From IMG/VR virus record IMGVR_UViG_2547132418_000017: a DNA stretch of 36,714 nt; one strand, given 5' to 3'. Positions 1-30,192 of this stretch are shown one piece after another. Position numbers and translations under genes: made by a program. The notes under the pieces were generated by a model that saw nothing but the letters and a program-made list of their open reading frames with translations, was not told where the DNA came from and made no database searches. The DNA comes from a virus (lineage: Duplodnaviria; Heunggongvirae; Uroviricota; Caudoviricetes). How positions within the stretch are numbered: position 1 is the stretch's first letter; each line of letters starts with the position of its first letter.

Positions 1-54
1 TTTTTTGCGCTCAAATCTGGACGGTTTTAATCATTAATGGCAGATAATTGATCG

Positions 55-76
55 CGTTTTAAATGCTTTTAAAACG
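55..76. repeat. AT-rich palindrome CGTTTTAAA-tgct-TTTAAAACG
   Basis: Perfect 9-bp inverted repeat with 4-bp spacer read directly; a longer version of the same palindrome recurs at 17795..17819. Confidence 0.5.
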
Positions 77-172
77 GGCTTTATCCAGTACCCGTTCCCT
101 CTTCTCATTTCTTAGTTTTGATGTGGTTGTTGCTGATTAGTTAGCAGTATGCGCCCCGCCAAAACGAGGCGC

Positions 173-864: not shown

Positions 865-917
865 ATACAAAAATCCGTCAAGACAAATACAAAAATCCGT
901 TGACAGCGGATTTTTGT
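865..917 (+). promoter_or_regulatory. Candidate operator: three copies of ACAAAAATCCG (two direct, one inverted)
   Basis: ATACAAAAATCCGT at 865..878 and 887..900; inverted copy CGGATTTTTGT at 907..917; copies 889..899 and 907..917 form a perfect 11-bp inverted repeat with 7-bp spacer. Confidence 0.55.
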
Positions 918-1269: not shown

Positions 1270-3312
1270 ATGTGGATTACAGCAAAAGAGTGTGCTGGCA
1301 TTGGAGGGCTACCAACACGTGAACACAATGTCAGAGCACGTCTAGATCGTGTAATTGAGAATAAACCTGAATTAAGGCGCAAGCGTGAAGGCACAAAAGC
1401 ATTCGAGTATCACATCGACTGCCTGCCCGCTGAAGCGGAGAAAGTTTTACGTAAGCGCCTGACCCATCAGGTCCTGGAAGATACGCAACTGCCCGCCGTG
1501 GTTGAGCAGAAGGCAGTTAAAAACGTTACCGTTCGCGATGAACTGGAGGTGATGGTCAAATGCCCGGAACTGGCATTACGCGAAGTTCAGGCACTGACTG
1601 ACAAGCAAAAAGCCATCGCAGATGCGCGGATATTGCTGGCTACCGAAGTGCATAAACTGCGTGAATACGCAGGAATGTCCAGGACGGCGGCGATAAAACA
1701 CATCGTTGATGGTATCCGGCAGGAGGCTTTGCCCGAGCGTGTTATTGTGGCAGGTAATACCGCCAATGCCCGACAGGGTAAGCGAACTGGCGTCAGTACA
1801 GGGAGTTTACAGGAATGGTATTCCGCCTGGCTGATGGCGCGCGGTGATGCCAATCAGTTACTGGCGTTACTGGCTCCCGGTCATCATAAGGGGACACCGT
1901 GGGAGCAGGTCTGGTGGTTGAGCGATTTCTTAATGTTCTATCGCTCATGGAAGCGCCCGACCGTTGAATATGCGTATCGCGAGTTTTCAGCCTGGTGGCA
2001 TGAAAAACACGCGAATGATGCGGGAATGCTGGCAGCACTGCCTTCAGTTCATGCAGTAAGACGGGTGTTAAGCAGCGTCCCGGTGATTGTTAAAGAGCGT
2101 TTCCGCTCCACCGGTTCAGCCTGGCGTTCGCTCAATCCCTTTGTGCGGCGCGACTGGACATCATTACCGGTTAATGCGGTATGGGTCGGGGATGGTCACT
2201 GTATGAAAATGACCGCGTTTAACCCCCTGACCGGCAATATTTTCCGGCCAGAAGTAACGCTGGTTATGGATGCGGGACAACGCTTTGTTGTGGGCTGGTC
2301 ACTGTCCCTGTCGGAGAACGTGATAGCCGTTGCTGATGCGTTACGTTACGGCATGGCGCAGCACGGGATACCGCTGGTTTATTACTCCGATAACGGGGGC
2401 GGTGAAAAAAACCGGGTGCTTGATGCCGATATTACCGGGATTCTGCCCCGGCTGGGTGTGGAACATCACACGGGGATACCAGGTAACCCGCAGGGGCGCG
2501 GGGTGATTGAAAGGCTTAATAAGGAAATTCCCCGGGATGTGGCCCTGAGTTTCCAGACGTACTGCTCAAAGGGAGCAGACAAGGAAACCGTAATGATGCA
2601 GCAACGGATTATGCAGTCAGCCATTAAGGCCACCCACAAAGGGAAAGAACTGACAAAACGGCAGGTTAAGGCGAGGGATGAAATCCCCACCTTTGAGCAG
2701 CTGATGGCAGCTATAGAGCTGGAGGTCAGACGCTATAACAACCGACCACACAGCAGCCTTCCCCGCAAAGAGGATGGCGAATATTACAGCCCGGCAGCGT
2801 ATCGCCGGAAACTGATAAAAGAGCAGAATGTTGAAATTGATTTCCTGTCGCCGGAAGAACTGCATGAAATGTTCAGACCGGAAGTGACGCGCAAAACATT
2901 TCGCGGGGAAATTCAGTTATTCAACAATATTTATTACTCGTATGAGCTGGCCGCAGAGCACGGGAATGAAGTCAGGGTCAGTTACGATATTCATGATGCA
3001 AACAGCGTCATTGTCCGGCGGGCTGATGGCTCTTATATCTGCGATGCCATCTGGAACGGTAACAAGGTTGATGCCTTCGCTAAACCAGTTATCGAACAAA
3101 AACTGGAGAAACGCGTCAGAGGCCGCATTGCACGGGCCACGCAGAAAATCGAAGAGGCTAAACGCGAGCTTACCCCGGCTATTACGCAGAAACCTGACTT
3201 TAATTTTGGATTTGGTCTGGAGCGCCCGGAGAAAAAGGATAAAGAAGAACTTTATTTATTTGCATCTGAACGCGAACGCAATTTAAAGAAAAACGGCACA
3301 AACAACCGTTAA
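1270..3312 (+). CDS. Mu-type DDE transposase A, 680 aa
   Basis: Size and position after ner; catalytic-core-like motifs VWVGDGHCM and VYYSDNGGGE. Confidence 0.9.
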   Translation: MWITAKECAGIGGLPTREHNVRARLDRVIENKPELRRKREGTKAFEYHIDCLPAEAEKVLRKRLTHQVLEDTQLPAVVEQKAVKNVTVRDELEVMVKCPELALREVQALTDKQKAIADARILLATEVHKLREYAGMSRTAAIKHIVDGIRQEALPERVIVAGNTANARQGKRTGVSTGSLQEWYSAWLMARGDANQLLALLAPGHHKGTPWEQVWWLSDFLMFYRSWKRPTVEYAYREFSAWWHEKHANDAGMLAALPSVHAVRRVLSSVPVIVKERFRSTGSAWRSLNPFVRRDWTSLPVNAVWVGDGHCMKMTAFNPLTGNIFRPEVTLVMDAGQRFVVGWSLSLSENVIAVADALRYGMAQHGIPLVYYSDNGGGEKNRVLDADITGILPRLGVEHHTGIPGNPQGRGVIERLNKEIPRDVALSFQTYCSKGADKETVMMQQRIMQSAIKATHKGKELTKRQVKARDEIPTFEQLMAAIELEVRRYNNRPHSSLPRKEDGEYYSPAAYRRKLIKEQNVEIDFLSPEELHEMFRPEVTRKTFRGEIQLFNNIYYSYELAAEHGNEVRVSYDIHDANSVIVRRADGSYICDAIWNGNKVDAFAKPVIEQKLEKRVRGRIARATQKIEEAKRELTPAITQKPDFNFGFGLERPEKKDKEELYLFASERERNLKKNGTNNR

Positions 3313-3330
3313 TTTAAAAGGTATTTAATT

Positions 3331-4224
3331 ATGAGTTTAATTACGCAATTAAATGACGTAATGGCCCGTCGCGGCTATACGCAGACCCACGTCGCCCGTG
3401 CTATTGGTCGTAGCAGCGCCGTTATCAACCAGTATTTACAGGGTAAATATCAGGGCGATATGGCTGATATTGAAGAACGCATTTCTGCCTTCGTGACCCG
3501 TGAGCGGGAAAAGGAAAACAGCCGCCGTATTAAAGCAAAGTTTGTGACCACCGGTATGGCTGCCAAAGGACTGGAGGTGCTGGCCTACGCTCACCTGGAA
3601 TGTGAAATCTGTGTGCTGTATGGCGCGGCAGGTCTTGGCAAAACAATGATTCTGCGTGAATACGCCTCCAGAAACCGGGATGCGGTCCTGATTGAGGCTG
3701 ACCCGGGCTATACAGCCAGGACACTGCTTGAGGAGTTGTGCCGCCAGCTGGGGGTAAAGGTTCGCGGCAACATTCACGAACTGATTGATGCCTGTGTGCG
3801 CGAACTGCGTGATTCCGGTCGTCTGCTGATGGTGGACGAGGCTGAACTGCTCCCCTATCGCGCACTGGAGGTTCTGCGCCGTCTGCATGACAAAGCGGGT
3901 ATCGGGGTTGTCCTGGCGGGTATGCCTCGTCTTCTGATTAATCTCAAGGGGCGTCGTGGTGAATTTGCGCAGTTATACAGCCGCGTGGCGCTGGCGCTTA
4001 ACCTGGGCGACATGCTGGCGCAGGAAGATTTTAACCAGATAGCCACCGGGCTGATGCCGGAAGCAGCAGAACGGGAAATCAGCGAGGCGCTTTACGCACG
4101 CTCGCTGGGTAATGCCCGCCGCCTGTTCAAACTGGCGCGTGGTGTGTACCGGATTTGTGATATCAGCGATGCGCCGGTCAGTGTGCAGGCCATTGATAAA
4201 TTCGCAGAAATGTTAATTCACTGA
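3331..4224 (+). CDS. Mu-type transposition ATPase B, 297 aa
   Basis: Walker A GAAGLGKT, Walker B LLMVDEAE, N-terminal HTH-like segment; immediately downstream of transposase A. Confidence 0.9.
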   Translation: MSLITQLNDVMARRGYTQTHVARAIGRSSAVINQYLQGKYQGDMADIEERISAFVTREREKENSRRIKAKFVTTGMAAKGLEVLAYAHLECEICVLYGAAGLGKTMILREYASRNRDAVLIEADPGYTARTLLEELCRQLGVKVRGNIHELIDACVRELRDSGRLLMVDEAELLPYRALEVLRRLHDKAGIGVVLAGMPRLLINLKGRRGEFAQLYSRVALALNLGDMLAQEDFNQIATGLMPEAAEREISEALYARSLGNARRLFKLARGVYRICDISDAPVSVQAIDKFAEMLIH

Positions 4225-4463
4225 TGGAGAACAAGATGATGGACAAGCAGACCATTAACGCCGTCCGTTCCCGTGCCCGTGTGGCCATCCACACCACCGG
4301 CGGTCGCGTAACTGGGCAACATCACCGTTTACCTGTGGTTTATGCCTGCCCGCCCGTGGGCGGCCCTGTATGGCCGGTAACGGAAATCATCCAGACATTC
4401 AGCGGCCTGCGCCGCGTGGTGAAAACGTCCTGTATCGACGGCTGCACCGTCGTATGGCAATAA
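4224..4463 (+). CDS. Hypothetical protein, 79 aa
   Basis: ATG overlaps the transposase B stop (TGATGG), suggesting translational coupling; no recognisable family. Confidence 0.45.
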   Translation: MENKMMDKQTINAVRSRARVAIHTTGGRVTGQHHRLPVVYACPPVGGPVWPVTEIIQTFSGLRRVVKTSCIDGCTVVWQ

Positions 4464-4475
4464 GAGGAAATCAGA

Positions 4476-4691
4476 ATGGCGGTTAAGTTAGAAGTAATTA
4501 TCTATACCGATGAAAAAGGCTGTGTTTTAACCCAGACCACGGGGAGTTATTCGAAGGACGGAGCTTCCGAAAAGGAGTTTCAGGTGGCAACAAGATTACA
4601 TGATGCTATCAAGGAAACGCTCAGAAATGACTATAACGGCGTGAATCTTTTTTCTGAAAATGTTGCGCCTCGCGCACATAACACACATTAA
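4476..4691 (+). CDS. Hypothetical protein, 71 aa
   Basis: ORF with SD AGAGGAAA upstream; no recognisable family. Confidence 0.45.
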   Translation: MAVKLEVIIYTDEKGCVLTQTTGSYSKDGASEKEFQVATRLHDAIKETLRNDYNGVNLFSENVAPRAHNTH

Positions 4692-4720
4692 TCTGTAAAT
4701 ATCACTGAGGTAATTTAATT

Positions 4721-5365
4721 ATGACTACTGAAAATAAAGTTAAGCAATACACGAAAACTCAAGCGCCTGAAGGTTACTGGGTGGATGCCCGTGGCGTAAT
4801 GACACCTGAAAGCCTTATCAAAGATATTGACCGCGACCGCGAGCAGCTGGTCGGTGAGCTTGTGGAGATGGTGATTACTGCCTCCGCCTCACTGCGGGAA
4901 CTGAAACTGCGTGCGTTTGGTGATATCCAGGCATTTATTGACCTGTCGGCAGAGAAATACGGTGCTGTGAAAGGCGGCAAAAAAGGGAATATCACGCTTT
5001 ACAGCTTTGACGGGCGTTACAAGATTCAGCGCGCCATGCAGGACCGTATCGCGTTTGATGAACGCATTCAGACCGCGAAGGCGCTGATTGACGACTGTCT
5101 GGCTGACTGGACGGAAGGTGCGCGCCCTGAAATTAAAGCCATCATCAGTGAGGCATTCAGCACGGACAAGGAAGGCAACATCAACACCGGGCGCGTTCTG
5201 GCCCTGCGTCGCCTCGAAATTGAGGACGAACGCTGGAATAACGCCATGTCGCTGATTGGTGAAGCCGTCCAGGTGATTGGCAGCAAGAGCTATATTCGTG
5301 TGTATGAGCGCGTTGGTGATTCTGATGAATACCGCGCAATCCCTCTTGATATTGCAGGGGTTTAA
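4721..5365 (+). CDS. DUF3164-like protein, 214 aa
   Basis: Resembles the DUF3164 family common in Mu-like prophages (recalled, not searched); sits where Mu carries gam. Confidence 0.6.
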   Translation: MTTENKVKQYTKTQAPEGYWVDARGVMTPESLIKDIDRDREQLVGELVEMVITASASLRELKLRAFGDIQAFIDLSAEKYGAVKGGKKGNITLYSFDGRYKIQRAMQDRIAFDERIQTAKALIDDCLADWTEGARPEIKAIISEAFSTDKEGNINTGRVLALRRLEIEDERWNNAMSLIGEAVQVIGSKSYIRVYERVGDSDEYRAIPLDIAGV

Positions 5366-5366
5366 T

Positions 5367-5600
5367 ATGCATCAGAATATCAAAGAGTACAGAGCCGGAA
5401 ATAGTTGCGCGGCGTATTCGCTGGGCGCGTCCAGAGCAGAACAACGCGGCGATTATGACGAGGCAGAAAAACTGTGGCGCAAGGCAGCGCAAAGCCCGTG
5501 TAGCACCCTGCGCCGCACCTGGGCTGAACATCGTGCGGAGTTCTGCGCTAACGCTCACCTGAAGGGATGGAGGCCACGCCATGAATGCGAAGAACTTTAA
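5367..5600 (+). CDS. Hypothetical protein, 77 aa
   Basis: ATG at 5367 one nt after the upstream stop, SD AGGGG 5356..5360; the longer form from 5277 overlaps the previous gene and is less likely. Confidence 0.4.
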   Translation: MHQNIKEYRAGNSCAAYSLGASRAEQRGDYDEAEKLWRKAAQSPCSTLRRTWAEHRAEFCANAHLKGWRPRHECEEL

Positions 5601-5772
5601 TAAGTTATATCCGCTTGGTACTCGTTTCATGCACATTGCACATCAGGCGGTGCGTGGTGGGCGGGTGGTAAAAACTGTTGCACCGGCCAGAGATTTTAAA
5701 TGTGGTTGTGTGATTGAAATTAATGTCGAGCCTTATTTCGTAAAAGTCGAAACACTGAAAGCACCGCATTAA
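5581..5772 (+). CDS. Hypothetical protein, 63 aa
   Basis: ORF overlapping the end of the previous gene; followed by the AT-rich spacer and hairpin. Confidence 0.35.
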   Translation: MNAKNFNKLYPLGTRFMHIAHQAVRGGRVVKTVAPARDFKCGCVIEINVEPYFVKVETLKAPH

Positions 5773-5803
5773 TTTAATTTGTTTTTAATTGTTATTTAAA
5801 ACA

Positions 5804-5841
5804 GGCGTAACCCCGCCGGGGCTGGCTTACGCCTGAATCTG
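5804..5841 (+). repeat. Hairpin-plus-RBS cassette, copy 1
   Basis: GGCGTAA (5804..5810) / TTACGCC (5827..5833) stem around a 16-nt GC-rich loop, then TGAATCTG and SD GGAGG; 38 nt identical to 6429..6466. Confidence 0.7.
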
Positions 5842-5853
5842 GAGGATTTGTAT

Positions 5854-6399
5854 ATGAAAGATAAAGTCTGGGATTTTATTGTTGCTCCTGAAGGTTTTGC
5901 CACCCGTTCATCTGAGAAGTTAACCAATGTAACGTTATGGGCATCATCATTGCTGGGCCATCTGGGAGCACCTGCCGATTTTATGTATGTGGTACTTGAT
6001 GCGCAGATTGCCGGAAATGCTGTGGCCAGTAATGGGGCTTATATTCAGGGGGATTTGTTCGCCATGATGGCGAATGACACAGCAGCGCTGTATATCGCCA
6101 CACGGAACATACTGACAAGAATATCCATGCTGTCTGACTGTAAGGATATGGAAGACCTCGCATACATCCTTGAAGATGATTTGCTCACTATTTCAGGTGT
6201 GCAGGAATCCCTCTCGCGTCAGTTGCGGTTTATTGAACTGATGGAGTCATATAAAGATAAGCCTGATTTTTTTCAGATTCGATTCAGCGGGATGGAACTG
6301 CTGGATAAATATTATCCGCTGGATTCGATTGCCCGTGATGTGAAGGCGTTCGTTAAGTCTGTTGGCCGCCATTACTGGAAAGCTGAACGTCGTAGTTAA
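5854..6399 (+). CDS. Hypothetical protein, 181 aa
   Basis: ATG 5854 with SD GGAGG 5841..5845; no recognisable family. Confidence 0.55.
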   Translation: MKDKVWDFIVAPEGFATRSSEKLTNVTLWASSLLGHLGAPADFMYVVLDAQIAGNAVASNGAYIQGDLFAMMANDTAALYIATRNILTRISMLSDCKDMEDLAYILEDDLLTISGVQESLSRQLRFIELMESYKDKPDFFQIRFSGMELLDKYYPLDSIARDVKAFVKSVGRHYWKAERRS

Positions 6400-6428
6400 T
6401 AAGTCTGTTTTTAATTTTATTTGTATAT

Positions 6429-6466
6429 GGCGTAACCCCGCCGGGGCTGGCTTACGCCTGAATCTG
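6429..6466 (+). repeat. Hairpin-plus-RBS cassette, copy 2
   Basis: Identical 38-nt core to 5804..5841, again directly upstream of a start codon (6478). Confidence 0.7.
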
Positions 6467-6477
6467 AGGGATTCATT

Positions 6478-7194
6478 ATGGAAAATAAAAGCAAATACAT
6501 CGCCAAAATTAAAAAGCTGTTACGCCTTGCCAGAGGAACATCAAGCCCGGAAGAAGCCGCTAACGCTATTGCAAAAGCCCAGGCTTATATGCGCCAGCAT
6601 GGCATCAGCGAAAACGACGCTGAATTGTTCGACATTCAGGAAGCTGCCAGCGCGGGTGCGCCGAGTGATGCCAGTACACCGCCGCGTTATATGCACATCC
6701 TGTGTGACCTGGTCTGTAAAGCCTTCGGTGTCGAGTGTTACATCTCCGGCGAATACCGGGCTTCTGGTTCACTCAAACGTTACGTTCGTTTTTATGGTCC
6801 TGACAGCCGCCCGGAAATTGCGGCATATGCGTTTGATGTGCTTTCCCGTCAGATGATGGCAGAGCGCAAGAAATATCAGGATAAACACTGCAAACGTTGC
6901 GGCCCGTCCACGCGGGTGGCCCGTGGCGACCAGTTCTGCGAAGGCTGGGTCTTTGGTGCCCGTGATGTCATTGCGGTGTATGACGTCTCCCCGGAAGAAA
7001 AAAGCCGCCTTGAGCTTTACAGAAAGAACCTGCACAGCACTAAGGGACTGCGCGACGGGGATATGCGCACAGCTAAAGCGTGCCGGGGTGCAGAGTTTGC
7101 CGCTACTGCCGGTTTTATCGCCGGGAAAAACGCCAGACTGCATCAGGGGGTTAATGGTCAGAGCAACAAAACGCTGGCACTGGGGAGGGTGTAA
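6478..7194 (+). CDS. DUF2786-like protein with C-terminal Cys cluster, 238 aa
   Basis: N-terminal KIKKLLRLARGTSSPEEAANAIAKAQAYMRQHGI resembles the DUF2786 family as I recall it; C-terminal HCKRCG...FCEGW. Confidence 0.55.
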   Translation: MENKSKYIAKIKKLLRLARGTSSPEEAANAIAKAQAYMRQHGISENDAELFDIQEAASAGAPSDASTPPRYMHILCDLVCKAFGVECYISGEYRASGSLKRYVRFYGPDSRPEIAAYAFDVLSRQMMAERKKYQDKHCKRCGPSTRVARGDQFCEGWVFGARDVIAVYDVSPEEKSRLELYRKNLHSTKGLRDGDMRTAKACRGAEFAATAGFIAGKNARLHQGVNGQSNKTLALGRV

Positions 7195-7196
7195 CG

Positions 7197-7424
7197 ATGG
7201 CTTTTAAACTTCTCAGTGTTACCGAAGCAATATACCAGCCGCCCGGAGAACGCCACGAATACAGGATGAATGACGGTAGCGCGGCGGTTGAGTTCCCCGG
7301 ATATCCGGGGGCTTCCCGGTGGCGGTTCTATGACAGTGCGGGACGCCGGATTATTAAAAGAATCGTGCACAACGCCATGAAAGCCGCTGTAGAACGTCAC
7401 AAAAGGAGGTTTAACTGCAAATGA
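7197..7424 (+). CDS. Hypothetical protein, 75 aa
   Basis: ORF starting 2 nt after the upstream stop. Confidence 0.4.
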   Translation: MAFKLLSVTEAIYQPPGERHEYRMNDGSAAVEFPGYPGASRWRFYDSAGRRIIKRIVHNAMKAAVERHKRRFNCK

Positions 7425-7645
7425 ATATTGAATTTTATAACTATGGGACTAAAGCAAAAATCATTGTTACCTGCTGGCTCTGGGAGTTTCGCCGCTATAA
7501 CCGGGTTGTGGATGCGGCGCTTTTTGTGGCCCCTGAAGTGCACCATCAGAGCGGTGGCGGTCTTTTAATGAGAACCGTCATCTACGGTAAGACGGTCCCG
7601 ATGTTACGGGCGTTTAAAGTGGCAAAACAGGAGGCTGCACAATGA
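7421..7645 (+). CDS. Hypothetical protein, 74 aa
   Basis: ATGA start-stop overlap with the previous gene; AT-rich. Confidence 0.4.
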   Translation: MNIEFYNYGTKAKIIVTCWLWEFRRYNRVVDAALFVAPEVHHQSGGGLLMRTVIYGKTVPMLRAFKVAKQEAAQ

Positions 7646-7833
7646 GTAACGAGCACATCCATCATTATCAGCGTGATGGGTCAATTTTCATATGCCAGCG
7701 TTGCGGCACAGCAAAGCATCGTAATGGTAAATACTGGTGGGCCGGTCGCTATTCAGAATCTGAACCACCATGTGTTGATGATGTTGTGGGGCAGGATGCG
7801 TGGTTTGAAACTGCAAAAAGCGAGGAAGGATGA
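7642..7833 (+). CDS. Hypothetical Cys-containing small protein (possible Zn ribbon), 63 aa
   Basis: ATGA overlap with upstream gene; CQRCG motif plus a further Cys. Confidence 0.4.
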   Translation: MSNEHIHHYQRDGSIFICQRCGTAKHRNGKYWWAGRYSESEPPCVDDVVGQDAWFETAKSEEG

Positions 7834-7834
7834 G

Positions 7835-8023
7835 ATGAAAAACCGTAAGGCAAGACTGCTGATAGCAAAGCCCGGGCAGTGTATCCGTATCTCAAACAGG
7901 CTTGTTATTTACTATAGATATCTGGGTTTTAGGGGGGGTTCCTCTATTCGTTTTTACGGTGTCTGGCGGAGCAGAAGCGCGGCGCAAAACCGCTGGAGGA
8001 ATCACGGAGCAACAACACGATGA
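7835..8023 (+). CDS. Hypothetical small basic protein, 62 aa
   Basis: ATG 7835 with SD GAGGAAGGA immediately upstream; this is the 3' part of six-frame ORF 7673..8023. Confidence 0.35.
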   Translation: MKNRKARLLIAKPGQCIRISNRLVIYYRYLGFRGGSSIRFYGVWRSRSAAQNRWRNHGATTR

Positions 8024-8205
8024 AAACTATCACTGTAACGGTTGAAATCGACGTTCCTGATAACGCAACGGACAATGATATTGCTGATTTTGTCGATGTC
8101 GAGTATGGGGAGTGCGGAAAAATGGCACTTGATAACCCATGCCGGACAGATGGAACGGAAATACTCGATGCCAGATGGGAACACGGACCTGATTACGCGA
8201 GGTGA
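8020..8205 (+). CDS. Hypothetical acidic protein, 61 aa
   Basis: ATGA overlap with upstream ORF. Confidence 0.4.
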   Translation: MKTITVTVEIDVPDNATDNDIADFVDVEYGECGKMALDNPCRTDGTEILDARWEHGPDYAR

Positions 8206-8208
8206 AAT

Positions 8209-8466
8209 ATGAGATTGGTTGACCTTTTTATTATCGCTCTGATTATTACGGTTATTGCGCTTTGCGTTACAACGGGCAAGGAACCTGATGTTCCTGGTGA
8301 TACGGGTGGGCATTGCGTGGTAAGGAGAAGTTTCATCAAAACCATTACGCATTGTGATGATGGAAGCGCCACCATGACCAGCGGCGATAAGTTTATATAC
8401 TGCTCTGCCGGGAAAGATGGCACGCCATCCTGTCATGAAGTGACGCTCAGTGATGGTGATAAATAA
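8209..8466 (+). CDS. Hypothetical small membrane-anchored Cys-rich protein, 85 aa
   Basis: N-terminal hydrophobic segment LVDLFIIALIITVIALCV followed by a Cys-containing soluble part; AT-rich. Confidence 0.4.
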   Translation: MRLVDLFIIALIITVIALCVTTGKEPDVPGDTGGHCVVRRSFIKTITHCDDGSATMTSGDKFIYCSAGKDGTPSCHEVTLSDGDK

Positions 8467-8492
8467 TTCATCATGTTGAGCGGATAATAATC

Positions 8493-8825
8493 ATGCGCAG
8501 ACCAAAACATATGTTTTGGTCTTCCAAAAGTGATGTTTTGGTCATTATGAAAATTGAACAAATCGGAATAGCTGCCTTCAGGCAGCAGGCTGAAAGCGGT
8601 GGTGTGGATGAGTTCGTCGTGCAGCGGTTCGGTGGTGTGTATCACCTCTTCGCTGTGAATCGCCGCGCCGGGGTGTCCTATTTTCTACAGGAACGCCGTG
8701 GCGATTACAAGACGTGGCTGTCTCTTGACCGTGCCGCCGCGTTCCTGTCGGGGATTGGTGTTTCACGTTTTACCGTGCGTTTTGAGGATAACAAACATGC
8801 TGAAAAAGATGATCGGGGCCATTAA
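8493..8825 (+). CDS. Hypothetical protein (start ambiguous: 8493, 8511 or 8547)
   Basis: ORF upstream of and overlapping the GemA-like gene by 29 nt in another frame; no strong SD at any candidate start. Confidence 0.35.
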   Translation: MRRPKHMFWSSKSDVLVIMKIEQIGIAAFRQQAESGGVDEFVVQRFGGVYHLFAVNRRAGVSYFLQERRGDYKTWLSLDRAAAFLSGIGVSRFTVRFEDNKHAEKDDRGH

Positions 8826-9192
8826 AGCCGGTCAGGCGTATCTGGGGTGGGATGATGCCCTTTATCGCCAGACGCTGGCCCGCCTGACCGGTAAAACCAG
8901 CACCACACGCTGCAATCTCGATGAACTGCGCATCATCCGGGAATACATGCACGAACAGGGATTCCCGCGCAAGGCACCCGCTGGTAAAGGTCGCCGCCCT
9001 CGTGTTGCAATGAGCAGAAAATCAGTATTATCCAAAATTGAAGCGTTGCTGGCTGATGCCGGTCGTTCCTGGGCGTATGTAGAAGGACTGGCATCTCACA
9101 TGTATAAGCAACATGTGATCGAATGGCTGACGGATGAACAGCTTTTTGGAGTGATGGTGGCGCTGGTTAAAGATTCAAGGAGACGTAAATGA
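8797..9192 (+). CDS. gemA: GemA-like protein (Mu gp16 family), 131 aa
   Basis: ATG 8797 with SD GAGG upstream; sequence recalled as resembling the Mu gp16/GemA (DUF1018) family; position just before the Mor-like gene as in Mu. Confidence 0.55.
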   Translation: MLKKMIGAIKAGQAYLGWDDALYRQTLARLTGKTSTTRCNLDELRIIREYMHEQGFPRKAPAGKGRRPRVAMSRKSVLSKIEALLADAGRSWAYVEGLASHMYKQHVIEWLTDEQLFGVMVALVKDSRRRK

Positions 9193-9527
9193 AAAAACTG
9201 TTATTACTTATTCTGACTTTATGTTTTACAGGGATATCCCATGCTTCTGATTCAGAGGAAGATTTGATCAAAAAAACATTACAGGGCGATTATCAGGCAC
9301 AACGTAATCTGGCTTATTCATACATGAATGGCTGGGATGATATTTCAAAGGATACCATCAGAGGATGCGCTCTCAGGAAGGTTATTCTCTTAACACAAGC
9401 CCAAGCTGACATTGGCGATTATGGAAATGAAGCCATAGATTGTCGAAAAGTGCATCCAACAGATAACCAGAAAGTATGGGAGTATGTCAGAGGATACCTG
9501 GTGTTGATAAACGAGAATAAAAAATAA
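9189..9527 (+). CDS. Secreted or lipoprotein-like small protein, 112 aa (moron candidate)
   Basis: N-terminal signal-peptide-like MKKLLLLILTLCFTGISHA; strongly AT-rich relative to neighbours; followed by an intrinsic terminator. Confidence 0.6.
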   Translation: MKKLLLLILTLCFTGISHASDSEEDLIKKTLQGDYQAQRNLAYSYMNGWDDISKDTIRGCALRKVILLTQAQADIGDYGNEAIDCRKVHPTDNQKVWEYVRGYLVLINENKK

Positions 9528-9537
9528 TATGAATAAC

Positions 9538-9564
9538 AACCTTCGCAAACGCGGAGGTTTTTTA
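9538..9564 (+). terminator. Rho-independent terminator
   Basis: Stem CCTTCGC/GCGGAGG (one G-U pair), loop AAAC, then TTTTTTA. Confidence 0.6.
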
Positions 9565-9591
9565 TGGTCTGTACAGGCGATCATGTATGGC

Positions 9592-9597
9592 TATAAT
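9592..9597 (+). promoter_or_regulatory. Perfect -10 hexamer TATAAT with no recognisable -35 (candidate activator-dependent promoter)
   Basis: TATAAT 30 bp upstream of the Mor-like ATG; sequence 17-18 bp upstream (CTGTAC) is a poor -35. Confidence 0.4.
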
Positions 9598-9626
9598 AAC
9601 AGTAAGTTACTAACGGAGACGCCATC

Positions 9627-10094
9627 ATGCAGACCTTCAGTGAAACAGATCTTCGCGATGCACAGGCACTGCTACCCGATTCCGTACAGCAACTGATTAG
9701 CGTGATTGGCTTCCCCGCCCTGACCCGGTTGATTTGTTCTTTTGGTGGTGTGACGTTAAGTGGTAAAACCGGCGCACACGCCGAACGCACCGGCGGTGTC
9801 CATGCCCTGTTACATGACGTGCTGACCGAAGACGAAATCAACAAACTGATCCGCTTTCTTGGCGGTGCACCGTTTTACATTCCCCGTTGCGATCATGCGT
9901 TACGTGCCCTGCGTAACACCCGTTTTATGGCTGATTTACAGCAGCATGTAAAAGGCGGATGCTCACACCGGCAGGCGCTGGCACTGCTCTGTCCCCGTTA
10001 CGGCATTTCAGACCGGTACGCATGGCAGCTGATACACCGACGACAAAAACAGACTTCGCTGAAAAGCCCCACCCAGGTGGGGCTTTTTGATTAA
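9627..10094 (+). CDS. mor: Mor/C-family transcriptional activator, 155 aa
   Basis: FYIPRCDHALRALRNTRF and C-terminal HTH-like RYGISDRYAWQLI resemble Mu Mor/C; located before the lysis and late genes. Confidence 0.75.
   Translation: MQTFSETDLRDAQALLPDSVQQLISVIGFPALTRLICSFGGVTLSGKTGAHAERTGGVHALLHDVLTEDEINKLIRFLGGAPFYIPRCDHALRALRNTRFMADLQQHVKGGCSHRQALALLCPRYGISDRYAWQLIHRRQKQTSLKSPTQVGLFD
10065..10089 (+). terminator. Rho-independent terminator overlapping the 3' end of the Mor-like gene
   Basis: AGCCCCACC / GGTGGGGCT stem followed by TTTTT; lies within the last codons of the ORF. Confidence 0.65.
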
Positions 10095-10121
10095 TGGGCC
10101 TCAGAAAAAAGGAGACACGAA

Positions 10122-10409
10122 ATGATGCGTTCTGACACCGATATCGACTATGCAGTACTCGGTGAATATACCGCATTTTCAGACAAGGCCCGGGATGCAG
10201 CCCGTCGCCGACATGCTGAAATGTGTAATTTATCCAGTTACCTGGCGAAACAGGCCCAAAGCCCGGAATCAGTAACGAATCATGATGAAGTGCTGTCAGC
10301 CGTAAACAGAATGATTGACGCAGAACGGGAAATGCGTAATGCCGTGGAAAGAGCTAACCTGCTGGCGCGGGCATGTTATAAGCCACCATTAAAACTCGCT
10401 TCTCTTTAA
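10122..10409 (+). CDS. Hypothetical protein, 95 aa
   Basis: Strong SD AAGGAG 7 nt upstream of ATG; no recognisable family. Confidence 0.5.
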   Translation: MMRSDTDIDYAVLGEYTAFSDKARDAARRRHAEMCNLSSYLAKQAQSPESVTNHDEVLSAVNRMIDAEREMRNAVERANLLARACYKPPLKLASL

Positions 10410-10596
10410 CCCATCCAGATAATCAACCTGCCGGGGGTGCTGAACTCCCCCAGCAGTACCCACCACACCAGACCGTTTACCCTGTCCACTCAGACCACAA
10501 GGCACCTTAAGGGATAGCGCCCTGCAAAAGGCTTTTGTGCCTTTGACAGGGTGTTATTTACGGGCCGTCAGTGGCTCAGATTTACAGGAGAAACTC

Positions 10597-10989
10597 ATGT
10601 CTGAACCCTTATCAGGCGGCGGAGCTGTGGCAGTCACCATCGGTGGTGCCAGTGTGTTTGGCCTTCTCACCAATACTGATTTCGGGGTCGTGGTGGGCGC
10701 GTTTGCTGGGGCGCTTTTTGTTGTCACGCAGCAGAAAGAAATCCCGGCATGGCGAATGGCTATTCACCTGCTCGTCGCGTTTGTGGTTGGCGTTCTGGGG
10801 GCTGGCGTGGCTGCGTCACTGATGCAGTGGCTGACCCACTATAACGACAAACCGCTTGATGCATTGTGTGCGGTCGGTGTCTCGGCGTTATCCATCAAGA
10901 TACTGACCTTTCTTTATCAACAGGAAATTTCATCGCTGTTCGGCCTGTTTTCCAGACTGCGCGGCGGAGGGGGTGGAAATGGAAAGTAG
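10597..10989 (+). CDS. Putative holin-like membrane protein, 130 aa
   Basis: ATG 10597 with SD CAGGAG; several hydrophobic helices, Gly-rich C-terminus; first gene of the lysis cassette. Confidence 0.5.
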   Translation: MSEPLSGGGAVAVTIGGASVFGLLTNTDFGVVVGAFAGALFVVTQQKEIPAWRMAIHLLVAFVVGVLGAGVAASLMQWLTHYNDKPLDALCAVGVSALSIKILTFLYQQEISSLFGLFSRLRGGGGGNGK

Positions 10990-12709: not shown

Positions 12710-12716
12710 CCACAGC

Positions 12717-12734
12717 GGCCCGGTTTTCCGGGCC
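12717..12734 (+). other. Perfect hairpin GGCCCGG-TTTT-CCGGGCC between the two terminase genes
   Basis: 7-bp perfect stem and 4-nt loop, 8 nt after the small terminase stop; followed by a weakly T-rich tract. Confidence 0.5.
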
Positions 12735-12743
12735 GTCTGATAT

Positions 12744-17702: not shown

Positions 17703-17794
17703 ATGGCCAGAAACGCGCTGTAATCGTCTTTGACGACATAAACGCCTCACGGATGAGGCATTACAGCACCGCACCCCATAAATGTCGTCAGAAT

Positions 17795-17819
17795 CGTTTT
17801 TAAAAGGGTTTTAAAAACG
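17795..17819. repeat. AT-rich palindrome CGTTTTTAAAA-GGG-TTTTAAAAACG
   Basis: Perfect 11-bp inverted repeat with 3-bp spacer in the 155-bp gap upstream of the protease/scaffold gene; same motif as 55..76. Confidence 0.6.
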
Positions 17820-17857
17820 GTTTTATTTCCACTTTTATCCTTTCGCGTTATGGCAGG

Positions 17858-19027
17858 GTGCTGAACACCCTCCACAGTACCCCGTGTTCCCCTTCCGTCA
17901 TCATGCCGCGTATGAAGATGAACATTGCGGCGTTAAGCCTCGAAATTACTAAAGCAACCCACAGCGAAATCCAGCTGTTTCCGGCAGGCGAGTTCAGTGC
18001 GGTGGATGGTCGCCCACATACCGATGAAGTCGAAAGCGGTAAATGGGTGCTGACTGCTGAACTGGCCGCGCAGCTTGTCGCGCAGGTGGCCGCCCGCGCC
18101 ACGCCTTTTGTCATTGATTACGAACATCAGACGCTGCGCGCCGTAAACAACGGCAAACCCGCCCCGGCGGCGGGCTGGTTCAGCCAGGTGGAATGGCGTG
18201 AAGGTGTGGGCCTGTATGCCACCGGTGTGGAGTGGACGGAGAACGCGGCGGCCATGATTGCTGCCGGTGAGTACAAATTTATTTCCCCTGTTTTTGCCTA
18301 CAACAAGCGCGGCGAAGTGCTGGAGCTGTTACATGCTGCGCTGACCAATACCCCTGCGCTGGACGGTATGGACGCGGTCATGCTGGCTGCGGCCAGCCGT
18401 CTGGCGAGTCTGTCAACTGAAACGGAGACCAAAACCGTGAACCCGGAACAATTAGCAAATTTACTCGCGCAGTTACGCTGGCTGCTGACGCTGCCGGAAA
18501 CCTCAACCGCAGAGGAAGTCTGCGCAGAGCTGCAAAAAATTATTGATGCTGTCTCTGGTGGCGAAGGAACGGCGGCAGCGTCTGTCAATCTGCTGGACCT
18601 GCTGAACCAGAAAGACGAGCAAATCGCCAGCCTGTCAGCCAGTGCCTATGACCCGACGAAGCATATCCCTCTGACGGCATATGAAGAACTTCAGGGACGT
18701 TATGCCGCACTGGCGCAACAGTCCGGTGAGGCCGAAGCCGGGGCACTGATTCAGGCGGCGCTGTCTGACGGGCGACTGCTTCCGGTGCAGGAAGACTGGG
18801 CGAAAGATTACGCCGGTCGCGATATCAACGGCTTTAAGTCCTGGCTGGAGAACGCACCAAAACTTGTTGCGCTCAGTAAGACCCAGACCGGCGGCAAAGC
18901 CCCTAAAACGCCGTCGCCTGCCCCGGCGCAGATTAAAACCGGTGATGACATCGATGTCGATATCGCCATTTGTTCAATGATGGGCGTTGATCCAGAGGAT
19001 GTCGCCCGTTACGCAGGAGACGAGTAA
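17858..19027 (+). CDS. Head protease/scaffold protein (Mu I-like)
   Basis: Position between G and the major head gene; Ala-rich scaffold-like C-terminal region; start uncertain (GTG 17858 or ATG 17903/17912/17918). Confidence 0.7.
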   Translation: MLNTLHSTPCSPSVIMPRMKMNIAALSLEITKATHSEIQLFPAGEFSAVDGRPHTDEVESGKWVLTAELAAQLVAQVAARATPFVIDYEHQTLRAVNNGKPAPAAGWFSQVEWREGVGLYATGVEWTENAAAMIAAGEYKFISPVFAYNKRGEVLELLHAALTNTPALDGMDAVMLAAASRLASLSTETETKTVNPEQLANLLAQLRWLLTLPETSTAEEVCAELQKIIDAVSGGEGTAAASVNLLDLLNQKDEQIASLSASAYDPTKHIPLTAYEELQGRYAALAQQSGEAEAGALIQAALSDGRLLPVQEDWAKDYAGRDINGFKSWLENAPKLVALSKTQTGGKAPKTPSPAPAQIKTGDDIDVDIAICSMMGVDPEDVARYAGDE

Positions 19028-29788: not shown

Positions 29789-29841
29789 GTGCTGAACACC
29801 CTCACCTGATTCTGACCTGTCCATGCTGCCAGACTGGCGGC

Positions 29842-30192
29842 ATGGACCAGACGATTTCACCTGCAACCGGCGACTACGAACGCCGCCGGATTTATACACT
29901 CCATAACTCGGTTTATCTGCGACTGGCGACACCGCTTGGCAGTTACTGGGCGGATACGTCGCTGGGGTCACGCCTGCACGAACTGAAGCGGGAAAAAGAC
30001 GTTTCCCGTGTTCACAGGCTGGCGGCGCAGTATGCCAGCCAGGCACTTCAGCCCCTGCTTGATGACGAGCGGGCAAAATCCATTACCGTTGACACGAAAG
30101 CGGGCCAGCGCGGCTGGCTGTTGCTGTTAATCACCGTCACGGATAACGCGGGCACACCGCAGACGTTTGAACACCCTGTGAGGATTATGTAA
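29842..30192 (+). CDS. Baseplate protein (Mu gp46-like), 116 aa
   Basis: Small ORF between spike and J-like baseplate gene. Confidence 0.55.
   Translation: MDQTISPATGDYERRRIYTLHNSVYLRLATPLGSYWADTSLGSRLHELKREKDVSRVHRLAAQYASQALQPLLDDERAKSITVDTKAGQRGWLLLLITVTDNAGTPQTFEHPVRIM

Follow-up and report, generated by a model that had tools for sequence, protein, structure and literature searches.

A stretch of 36,714 nucleotides (IMG/VR record IMGVR_UViG_2547132418_000017; hereafter the window), which is a portion of a Mu-like transposable prophage with relatives in Escherichia coli, carries a single gene of the Mor/C family of transcriptional activators, and our findings suggest that this gene forms an insulated single-gene cassette serving a two-tier cascade that would run directly from early to late expression. 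We regard this reading, derived from the sequence, as reasonably probable. The early operon, together with a variable exported cargo gene, would end at an intrinsic terminator (9538..9565). A σ70-type promoter (9569..9597), with a perfect -10 element, a partial -35 element and no Mor-type box, would then transcribe the activator gene; the activator, which belongs to the clade of C-position copies, would turn on three late promoters; and a terminator located within the last nine codons of the gene would prevent the activator transcript from entering the lysis genes. The textbook model for this activator family is the Mor-to-C relay of phage Mu. For this locus, an earlier note had proposed either that the middle and late stages are collapsed into one activator or that a second activator is too diverged to recognise; the former is the better of the two alternatives.

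The 155-residue product of the open reading frame (ORF) at 9627..10094 matches the Pfam Mor family (PF08765) at 29.1 bits, over the gathering cut-off of 24.9, and the phrog_836 family, annotated as “late transcriptional activator,” with an E-value of 1.5e-42. Searching with a profile of close homologues gave E=9e-4 for Mu C (PDB 9l0x), over residues 68-152, and E=0.78 for Mor (1rr7). When the protein is aligned with Mu Mor and Mu C, a common linker is seen, G-x4-Y-I-P, in which G79, Y84 and P86 are invariant and I85 is near-invariant (at least 90%). The N-terminal clamp-binding motif Qx[DE][LM]F is absent from the protein, whose N-terminus reads MQTFSE.

That only one Mor/C protein is recognisable here was borne out by the Pfam and phrog_836 matches and by two broader searches. 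An unfiltered search of every six-frame piece of 30 aa or longer (680 in all) with a profile that included Mu Mor and Mu C, made as a check of the small ORFs for Mor/C-like domains, recovered one ORF, 9627..10094, with the runner-up at E=0.86; similarly, when 36 gene-like ORFs were compared with the Mor/C alignment by hhalign, all except the activator ORF remained at or below 2.3% probability. The suggestion of a second, unrecognisably diverged activator found no support, as no other ORF matched in either search. The specific candidate put forward for that role, ORF110 (8493..8825), reached 2.2% across 9 columns in hhalign and has a weak, sub-threshold ParC-like NCBIfam match, and was rejected as a diverged Mor.

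Among the 50 IMG/VR loci found with the family alignment, three layouts were distinguished. In type A, a lone activator gene overlaps the end of gemA, and neither a promoter nor a terminator intervenes; in type B, two paralogues lie ~0.5-1 kb apart, as in Mu; and in type C, the layout of the window, a terminator, a promoter block, the activator and an internal terminator follow one another. A single Mor/C gene is not unusual, being common in the Mu-like phages of Pseudomonas, Klebsiella, Mannheimia and Haemophilus, and a single Mor gene beside gemA is the annotated norm in Pseudomonas Mu-like phages (PMC4378225). In a neighbour-joining tree, the window protein groups with the downstream (B2) copies of type B loci and with some type A singles, and the upstream (B1) copies group with Klebsiella-type singles. 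The downstream copy of type B is preceded by a Mor-type box with an AATACT -10 element and has no σ70-type promoter there; the type B hairpin AACACCTTCCGC..GGAGGTGTT resembles the upstream terminator of the window, AACCTTCGC..GCGGAGGTT, and looks homologous to it. The comparison suggests that type C could derive from a type B-like ancestor that lost the upstream paralogue and the box and gained the σ70-type block. In several type B loci (L025, L029-L031, L035, L038 and L040, at ~3900..3990), the predicted start lies inside the 5' arm of a hairpin just before the ribosome-binding site (RBS), so that upstream read-through would terminate there and the promoter's own transcripts would not.

Four lineages of type C were available for comparison: the window group, L020 (activator 92% identical), the Salmonella-like L022 (66%) and L053/L072 from Edwardsiella hoshinae (54%). 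At the upstream end of the cassette, the hairpin at 9538..9565 was positive in the terminator scan and folds at -13.2 kcal/mol (z=-3.2). The hairpins at the equivalent position in relatives differ in sequence (AGCCCCTGC..GCAGGGGCT; ACCCTCGCA..TGCGGGGGT), and this retention in place despite a different sequence indicates conservation of the structure and favours an RNA terminator over a protein-binding site.

The promoter scan paired TATAAT with TGTACA (9570..9575) across a 16-bp spacer, with 10/12 matches, of which the -35-like hexamer contributes 4/6 and lacks the TTG core. The perfect TATAAT at 9592..9597 reported earlier is present and is the sole copy on the + strand, the two strands of the window together holding 2 copies against 8.2 expected. 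The accompanying statement that no -35 is recognisable stands insofar as the TTG core is missing; it fails insofar as TGTACA occurs at 16-bp spacing and CTGTACA is conserved in four lineages. Because promoter-like matches as a class are at chance level in the region (6 found versus 4.7 expected), the support for this promoter comes from conservation and not from the scan. Across the four lineages, 20 of the 29 positions of the block CTGTACA-N3-GATCA-N4-TG-N2-TATAAT are invariant, whereas the flanking upstream hairpin and downstream leader are unalignable. An invariant block between unalignable flanks points to constraint on the block itself, and this constraint reaches beyond both hexamers to the GATCA and TG elements. 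Upstream of the activator gene (9481..9640), the best score for a Mor-type activator box was -7 bits, versus 22-30 bits for the late promoters; this value, together with the conserved -35-like CTGTACA, speaks against the idea of a -35-less promoter dependent on a Mor-type activator. Scans for further examples of the promoter block returned the known contigs among viral contigs and Edwardsiella hoshinae only among genome contigs.

The downstream end of the cassette is marked by a hairpin at 10061..10088 that folds at -20.6 kcal/mol (z=-4.4), a stability equalled by 0 of 200 shuffles, so that the earlier claim of a strong terminator at 10065..10089 overlapping the last codons proved essentially right, coordinates included. 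In this structure, G10061-C10072 pairs with G10077-U10088, the last G-C pair falls at 10083 and the T-run covers 10084..10088; the sequence downstream of the hairpin, TTTTTGATTAA, includes the stop codon TAA (10092..10094), and the U-tract reads UUUUUGAUU. The hairpin escaped a simple terminator scan, since the T-run is taken up by the A/T extension of its stem. Internal terminators were seen only in the four cassette-type lineages, in all of which GGGGCTTTTTGATTAA is invariant; loci of types A and B have a hairpin after the stop codon or none. In L053, an A-U pair of the hairpin is replaced by a compensatory G-C pair, at the cost of Thr-to-Ala and Val-to-Ala substitutions.

The 3' part of this hairpin coincides with the codons of a C-terminal motif, QVGLF, that aligns with QPDLF of Mu C and resembles the β-clamp-binding consensus QL[SD]LF; a C-terminal Q-x-x-L-F occurs in every family member examined. 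In MuC, the QPDLF motif is required for clamp binding, toxicity and late transcription, and overproduction of the protein is toxic through titration of the clamp (PMC12867686). The stop codon of the window gene lies 9-11 nt past the last G-C pair of the hairpin. Intrinsic termination usually occurs 7-9 nt past the stem, which would place RNA release at ~10090..10092, ahead of a complete UAA. Judging from these distances, the terminated RNAs probably have no stop codon. It is speculative that such early release has a regulatory role, exerted by transfer-messenger RNA (tmRNA) tagging or through a sensitivity to the coupling of ribosomes; LacI provides a precedent for regulated trans-translation (PMC3985003).

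The presumed targets of the activator are three predicted late promoters, recognised by a 16-bp imperfect dyad, GCTGA-N6-TCANN, with no -35 element and a weak -10 of the TAnnnT type. The dyad centre lies 31.5 nt 5' of the first -10 base, so that the box covers -51..-36 and is centred at -43.5; the dyad of Mu Pm likewise spans -51 to -36, with the same geometry for Mor at Pm (PMC4287176; PMC4390567). A matrix of box and -10 columns, constructed from the lysis promoters of twelve relatives only, gave 29.9, 22.6 and 21.8 bits for the top three positions in the window and 11.1 for the next, against maxima of 5.8 (median) and 15.6 (highest) across 50 shuffles. Late promoter 1, with an exact GTGCTGAACNCCC box (22.6 bits), lies ahead of two holins and a GH108 endolysin; late promoter 2 (21.8 bits) is directly 5' of the Mu-like protease I gene (Pfam Mu-like_Pro, E=3e-100); and late promoter 3, the best of the window (29.9 bits), is found between the gp45-like and gp46-like genes. 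The first two occupy the positions of Mu Plys and PI. Of the two gaps that the earlier note had singled out, 10410..10596 contains an activator-type box (10439..10454), and the box expected in 17703..17857 lies just beyond it, at 17860..17875.

Both GTGCTGAACNCCC and the extended sequence GTGCTGAAC[A/T]CCC (10437, 17858 and 29789) occur in exactly three copies, all on the + strand and all intergenic. In relatives, the same box is located between the activator and the lysis genes and is followed by a TACACT/TATACT-like hexamer 40 nt past the T of TGCTGAAC. GCTGAAC alone is over-represented in the window (28 found versus 5.6 expected), mostly in coding sequence; this excess is presumably a codon effect, and only the longer box is diagnostic. 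From these matches we infer that the single activator drives all three late promoters.

Several features accompany these promoters. The predicted +1 positions, 7-8 nt past the -10, coincide with the A of the first in-frame ATG of the protease I gene (17912) and of the gp46-like gene (29842), and neither ATG has a preceding Shine-Dalgarno sequence (regions 17899..17914 and 29830..29844); this could mean leaderless mRNAs or wrongly assigned start codons. The lysis operon has a predicted leader with a long stable hairpin (~10512..10559) followed by the U-rich UUAUUUAC, the region 10490..10600 folding at -43.9 kcal/mol (z=-4.1), and this hairpin may act as an attenuator or stabiliser between the late promoter and the first holin. 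Additionally, 34 nt of phased A/T tracts (ATCG..TTTTAAA..TTTTAAAA..GG.TTTAT) are common to 50..84 and 17792..17826 (score 28 versus a largest shuffle of 22). The second copy falls between the G-like gene and gene I, just 5' of late promoter 2, in the gap that in Mu contains the central strong gyrase site.

Upstream of the cassette, the start of ORF112 overlaps the gemA stop codon (ATGA; GemA ends at 9192), in the exact position that mor occupies in Mu. ORF112 was rejected as a regulator or Mor (hhalign probability against Mor/C of 0.1%, signal peptide, variable cargo slot) and is, from its sequence features, a dispensable exported cargo protein and no regulator. Among phages with a 92-99% identical activator, the slot is variously empty or occupied by ORF112 or by an unrelated exported protein, either of 158-159 aa or of 167 aa, and in L032 and L033 a homologue of ORF112 lies downstream of the activator gene. 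Across the slot (9189..9527) in the window, L001 and L004-L023, each cargo version has its own terminator hairpin and the downstream promoter is identical throughout. On the other side of the cassette, ORF95 was rejected as a Mor/C relative (hhalign 0.1%; a PDB search without a relative); given the predicted terminator, its expression would be possible only via read-through. The ORF95 family, predicted to be helical, accompanies Mor-family genes in all three layouts, either after the activator or between paralogues (window 10122..10409; L022 4475..4783; L024 4416..4748; L036 2337..2744; L040 3555..3881), and ORF95 might be a partner or modulator of the activator.

Table 1. Positions of the activator cassette, its neighbouring genes and the predicted late promoters in the window
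Feature	Position	Strand	Details
GemA-family gene	8698..9192	+	Final conserved early-operon gene; Pfam GemA PF06252, E=7e-18
ORF112, exported Sel1-like cargo (“moron”) gene	9189..9527	+	Signal-peptide-like N-terminus MKKLLLLILTLCFTGISHA/SD; weak Sel1 matches
Intrinsic terminator (predicted), end of early operon/cargo gene	9538..9565	+	9-bp stem AACCTTCGC/GCGGAGGTT, loop AAAC, TTTTTT
Activator-gene promoter (predicted)	9569..9597	+	Directly after the T-tract; predicted +1 ~9604
Promoter part CTGTACA	9569..9575	+
Promoter part GATCA	9579..9583	+	Dam site, in the spacer
Promoter part TG	9588..9589	+
Promoter part TATAAT	9592..9597	+
Mor/C-family late activator gene	9627..10094	+	155 aa; RBS GGAG 9615..9618; sole family gene in the window
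Intrinsic terminator (predicted), in last nine codons of activator gene	10061..10088	+	12-bp stem, 4-nt loop
QVGLF codons, C-terminal β-clamp-binding motif	10074..10088	+	Encoded by terminator 3' arm and T-tract
ORF95 (phrog_7152)	10122..10409	+	Homologues adjoin Mor-family genes in several layouts
Late promoter 1 (predicted), Plys analogue	10439..10483	+	Dyad GCTGAACTCCCCCAGC 10439..10454 (-51..-36); -10 TACCCT 10478..10483
Late promoter 2 (predicted), PI analogue	17860..17904	+	Dyad GCTGAACACCCTCCAC 17860..17875; -10 CATCAT 17899..17904
Late promoter 3 (predicted), tail/baseplate genes	29791..29835	+	Dyad GCTGAACACCCTCACC 29791..29806; -10 CAGACT 29830..29835

Several points weigh against a two-tier cascade with one insulated activator. 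All of its promoters and terminators are sequence predictions, and the covariation in the internal terminator amounts to one pair in four sequences, a result equalled by 134 of 500 shuffles. An AlphaFold model of the activator (pLDDT, the predicted local distance difference test, 81.8) recovered neither Mor nor C when compared with the PDB. Late promoter 3 is analogous to Mu PP but lies two genes further downstream, and a perfect -10 with a 4/6 -35 might be active in the lysogen, where it would be lethal. Under one alternative, the promoter is effectively -35-less and needs an activator from outside the Mor/C family, for example a conserved early protein, so that a three-tier cascade persists. 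The -35-like hexamer without a TTG core, the 16-bp spacer and the need for the promoter to be off in lysogens are in keeping with such a factor, as are GATCA and TG, which are invariant in four lineages and unexplained by σ70 alone. Early candidates exist (GemA, DUF2786/DUF7168, an ANR-family protein and several small ORFs), but none stands out; ORF112, ORF110 and ORF95 are excluded as Mor-like, ORF112 being dispensable cargo, and c and Ner are excluded since heteroimmune phages share the promoter. Moreover, the conserved elements lie in the core promoter (-35 to -15) and not upstream, where activators usually bind. On balance, we consider a factor of this kind unlikely.

Marginally less probable still is that the activator is produced mainly by read-through of the early terminator, with 9569..9597 serving as a weak auxiliary promoter or autoregulatory operator. 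The upstream hairpin of the window contains a G-U pair and has a modest folding energy, and the toxicity of overproduced MuC (PMC12867686) means that negative feedback would make sense. The CTGTACA..GATCA segment resembles the half-sites of the activator and is itself centred at ~-27.5, where binding would repress: a single base separates CTGTACA from CTGAACA, the left half of the late box, the L053 promoter has GCTGT-N8-TCAGT compared with GCTGA-N6-TCAGT in its late box, and the promoter core of L022 equals the late box with two single-base insertions. However, the fourth base is T in place of the A of all late boxes examined save L049 (GACGAAC, which aligns poorly), the half-site spacing is 8 and not 6, and so short a resemblance is possibly due to chance (~10% for a 7-mer with one mismatch in the interval); the conservation in all four lineages of a perfect TATAAT, correctly spaced from the start codon, argues for a real promoter. 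An arrangement devoid of regulatory meaning, in which the hairpins and TATAAT occur by accident and the gene is simply transcribed as part of the early operon, would agree with the chance frequency of promoter-like matches in the region and with most relatives, whose activator gene overlaps the end of gemA without a promoter or terminator between. We find this very hard to credit, as the same three-part layout recurs in four lineages despite differing upstream hairpin sequences, the internal hairpin is retained with a compensatory change that costs two amino-acid substitutions, and TATAAT is depleted in the window and unique on its + strand.

If the cassette works as we propose, its promoter must be silent in the lysogen and on after induction, and since activity in the lysogen could be lethal, some control of the promoter has to exist. 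The signal must come from a host feature, from the state of the DNA (copy number or Dam methylation), from a conserved early protein or from transcription leaking through from the early promoter. Both Ner and the immunity repressor were rejected as controllers because L001, which has the same promoter and a 99% identical activator, is heteroimmune: its c and ner genes share 49% and 46% identity with those of the window, and its operators differ. The operator half-site ACAAAAATCCG has zero matches at up to 2 mismatches near 9528..9626, and the promoter shares no k-mer of 7 or longer with the operator region. The early operator itself (867..917) comprises three ACAAAAATCCG copies, two of which, as a perfect inverted repeat of 11 bp, flank the TTGACA -35 element of the early promoter (TTGACA-17-TAGGAT). 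The L001 operators are unrelated and of the GGATAACAC type, which indicates that immunity regions are mosaic within this phage group.

Inspection by eye for host regulators yielded no convincing site at the promoter. A LexA box is unlikely, as L022 and L053 have CTG-N10-CAG but the window and L020 have CTG-N10-CAT, the centre is G+C-rich and the conserved GA is left unexplained; a CRP-like TGT-N8-TCA has 8/16 matches and is centred at ~-26.5, a non-activating position; and there was no match to the consensus of integration host factor (IHF) or of σ54. A co-occurrence search for early genes specific to cassette-type phages found that generic Mu-like early genes alone are shared.

The distribution of GATC offers a lead to the control of the promoter. 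This tetranucleotide is depleted ~5.5-fold in the window (26 sites versus 140-148 expected), with zero sites in 1346..8810 and zero after 26815, and 7 of the 26 are clustered in 8811..9891; the promoter GATC is the sole cassette GATC kept in all four lineages. Taken together with the predicted non-stop transcripts, this conserved site would allow the cassette to act as a replication- and translation-coupled timer replacing Mor, a joint proposal that we consider improbable. Promoter output would depend on the Dam-methylation state or copy number of the replicating phage DNA. The terminated RNAs would be non-stop mRNAs whose product is tmRNA-tagged and degraded, with its clamp-binding C-terminus masked, and stable activator would arise only from transcripts that read through the hairpin, an outcome favoured by tight transcription-translation coupling. 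If true, a toxic, lysis-triggering activator could be held at zero in the lysogen and a sharp late switch obtained without a second activator.

The gene order of the window follows that of a Mu-like prophage: an Xre-type repressor (minus strand), a Ner-like winged-helix protein, the Mu-type transposase A and the AAA+ protein B are followed by a run of small early genes, GemA, the activator region, and the two holins and GH108 endolysin; the right part contains the terminase, portal, Mu F-like and G-like proteins, protease I, the major head protein, and tail and baseplate genes. The true start of GemA is likely ATG 8797, giving a product of 131 aa, and the protein shares 97.7% identity with GemA of the E. 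coli relative L001. Of 5,426 complete E. coli genomes, 87 match the segment 8000..12000, and in 58 of these the identity is 95-99%. The cassette itself (9528..10121) is present in 58 of the 5,426 at 96-98% identity, E2348/69 among them, and is therefore evidently compatible with stable lysogeny. The early gene 5277..5600 encodes an ANR-family small regulator (NCBIfam NF033650, 56.4 bits versus a cut-off of 32; domain residues 45-94) and is kept in the Salmonella-like and Edwardsiella relatives. A strong hairpin (12713..12735; -22.3 kcal/mol, z=-5.2), without a good T-tract, separates the DUF1804 gene from the large terminase gene; CTAG is nearly missing from the window (3 sites), and an Rfam search of the window gave zero matches.

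These findings indicate that the relay is evolutionarily flexible, since the family is deployed as one activator in the early operon, as two in series or as one in an insulated cassette, with the same late-promoter geometry. They also raise the question of how an ordinary-looking promoter for a lysis activator is silenced in the lysogen without a dedicated upstream activator or an immunity operator. The overlap of terminator and clamp motif provides a natural construct for studying how the C-terminus and the transcript 3' end affect activator level. A modest practical gain is a late-promoter motif with which to annotate this group of enterobacterial Mu-like prophages, found in ~1% of complete E. 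coli genomes.

Compared with Mu, in which Mor acts at Pm and C at Plys, PI, PP and Pmom, the window shares the activator family, its linker motif and its C-terminal QxxLF, the placement of the activator after gemA and before the lysis genes, and an early-operon terminator directly 5' of the late-activator promoter (the Mu equivalent is L003 1677..1701). Its late promoters, too, lack a -35, combine a weak -10 with a 16-bp dyad covering -51..-36, and precede the lysis genes and gene I; no analogue of Pmom was found in the window. Both systems have a terminator at the 3' end of the activator gene, which in Mu overlaps the C stop codon and in the window lies wholly inside the ORF. The differences are that the window has one activator and Mu two; that the activator promoter, unlike Pm, has no Mor-type dyad and carries its -35-like element 11 bp further from the hairpin; that the gene is a monocistronic unit, while Mu C comes fourth in the middle operon; and that the protein, unlike Mu C, has no N-terminal clamp-binding motif. 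In P2, 186 and P4, one small activator (Ogr, B or Delta) serves all late operons at -35-less dyad promoters, and P2 ogr has its own promoter outside the early operon; they are, however, unrelated zinc-finger proteins whose binding sites are positioned differently, and the window protein falls outside that family.

Closer parallels exist among the Mu-like phages. The D3112/B3-like phages of Pseudomonas, those of Klebsiella, Mannheimia phage 3927AP2 and Haemophilus phage SuMu also have one Mor/C gene adjoining gemA (30-41% identity), but their gene overlaps or abuts gemA within the early operon, whereas that of the window is set apart by a terminator and a promoter. The relatives with two paralogues (L025, L028-L031, L034-L036 and L038-L041) have a downstream copy that is 44-57% identical to the window protein, of the same clade and associated with the same late box; unlike the window, they retain the upstream paralogue right after gemA. 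The locus is thus a modest variant of the known Mu regulatory scheme and not a new kind of system.

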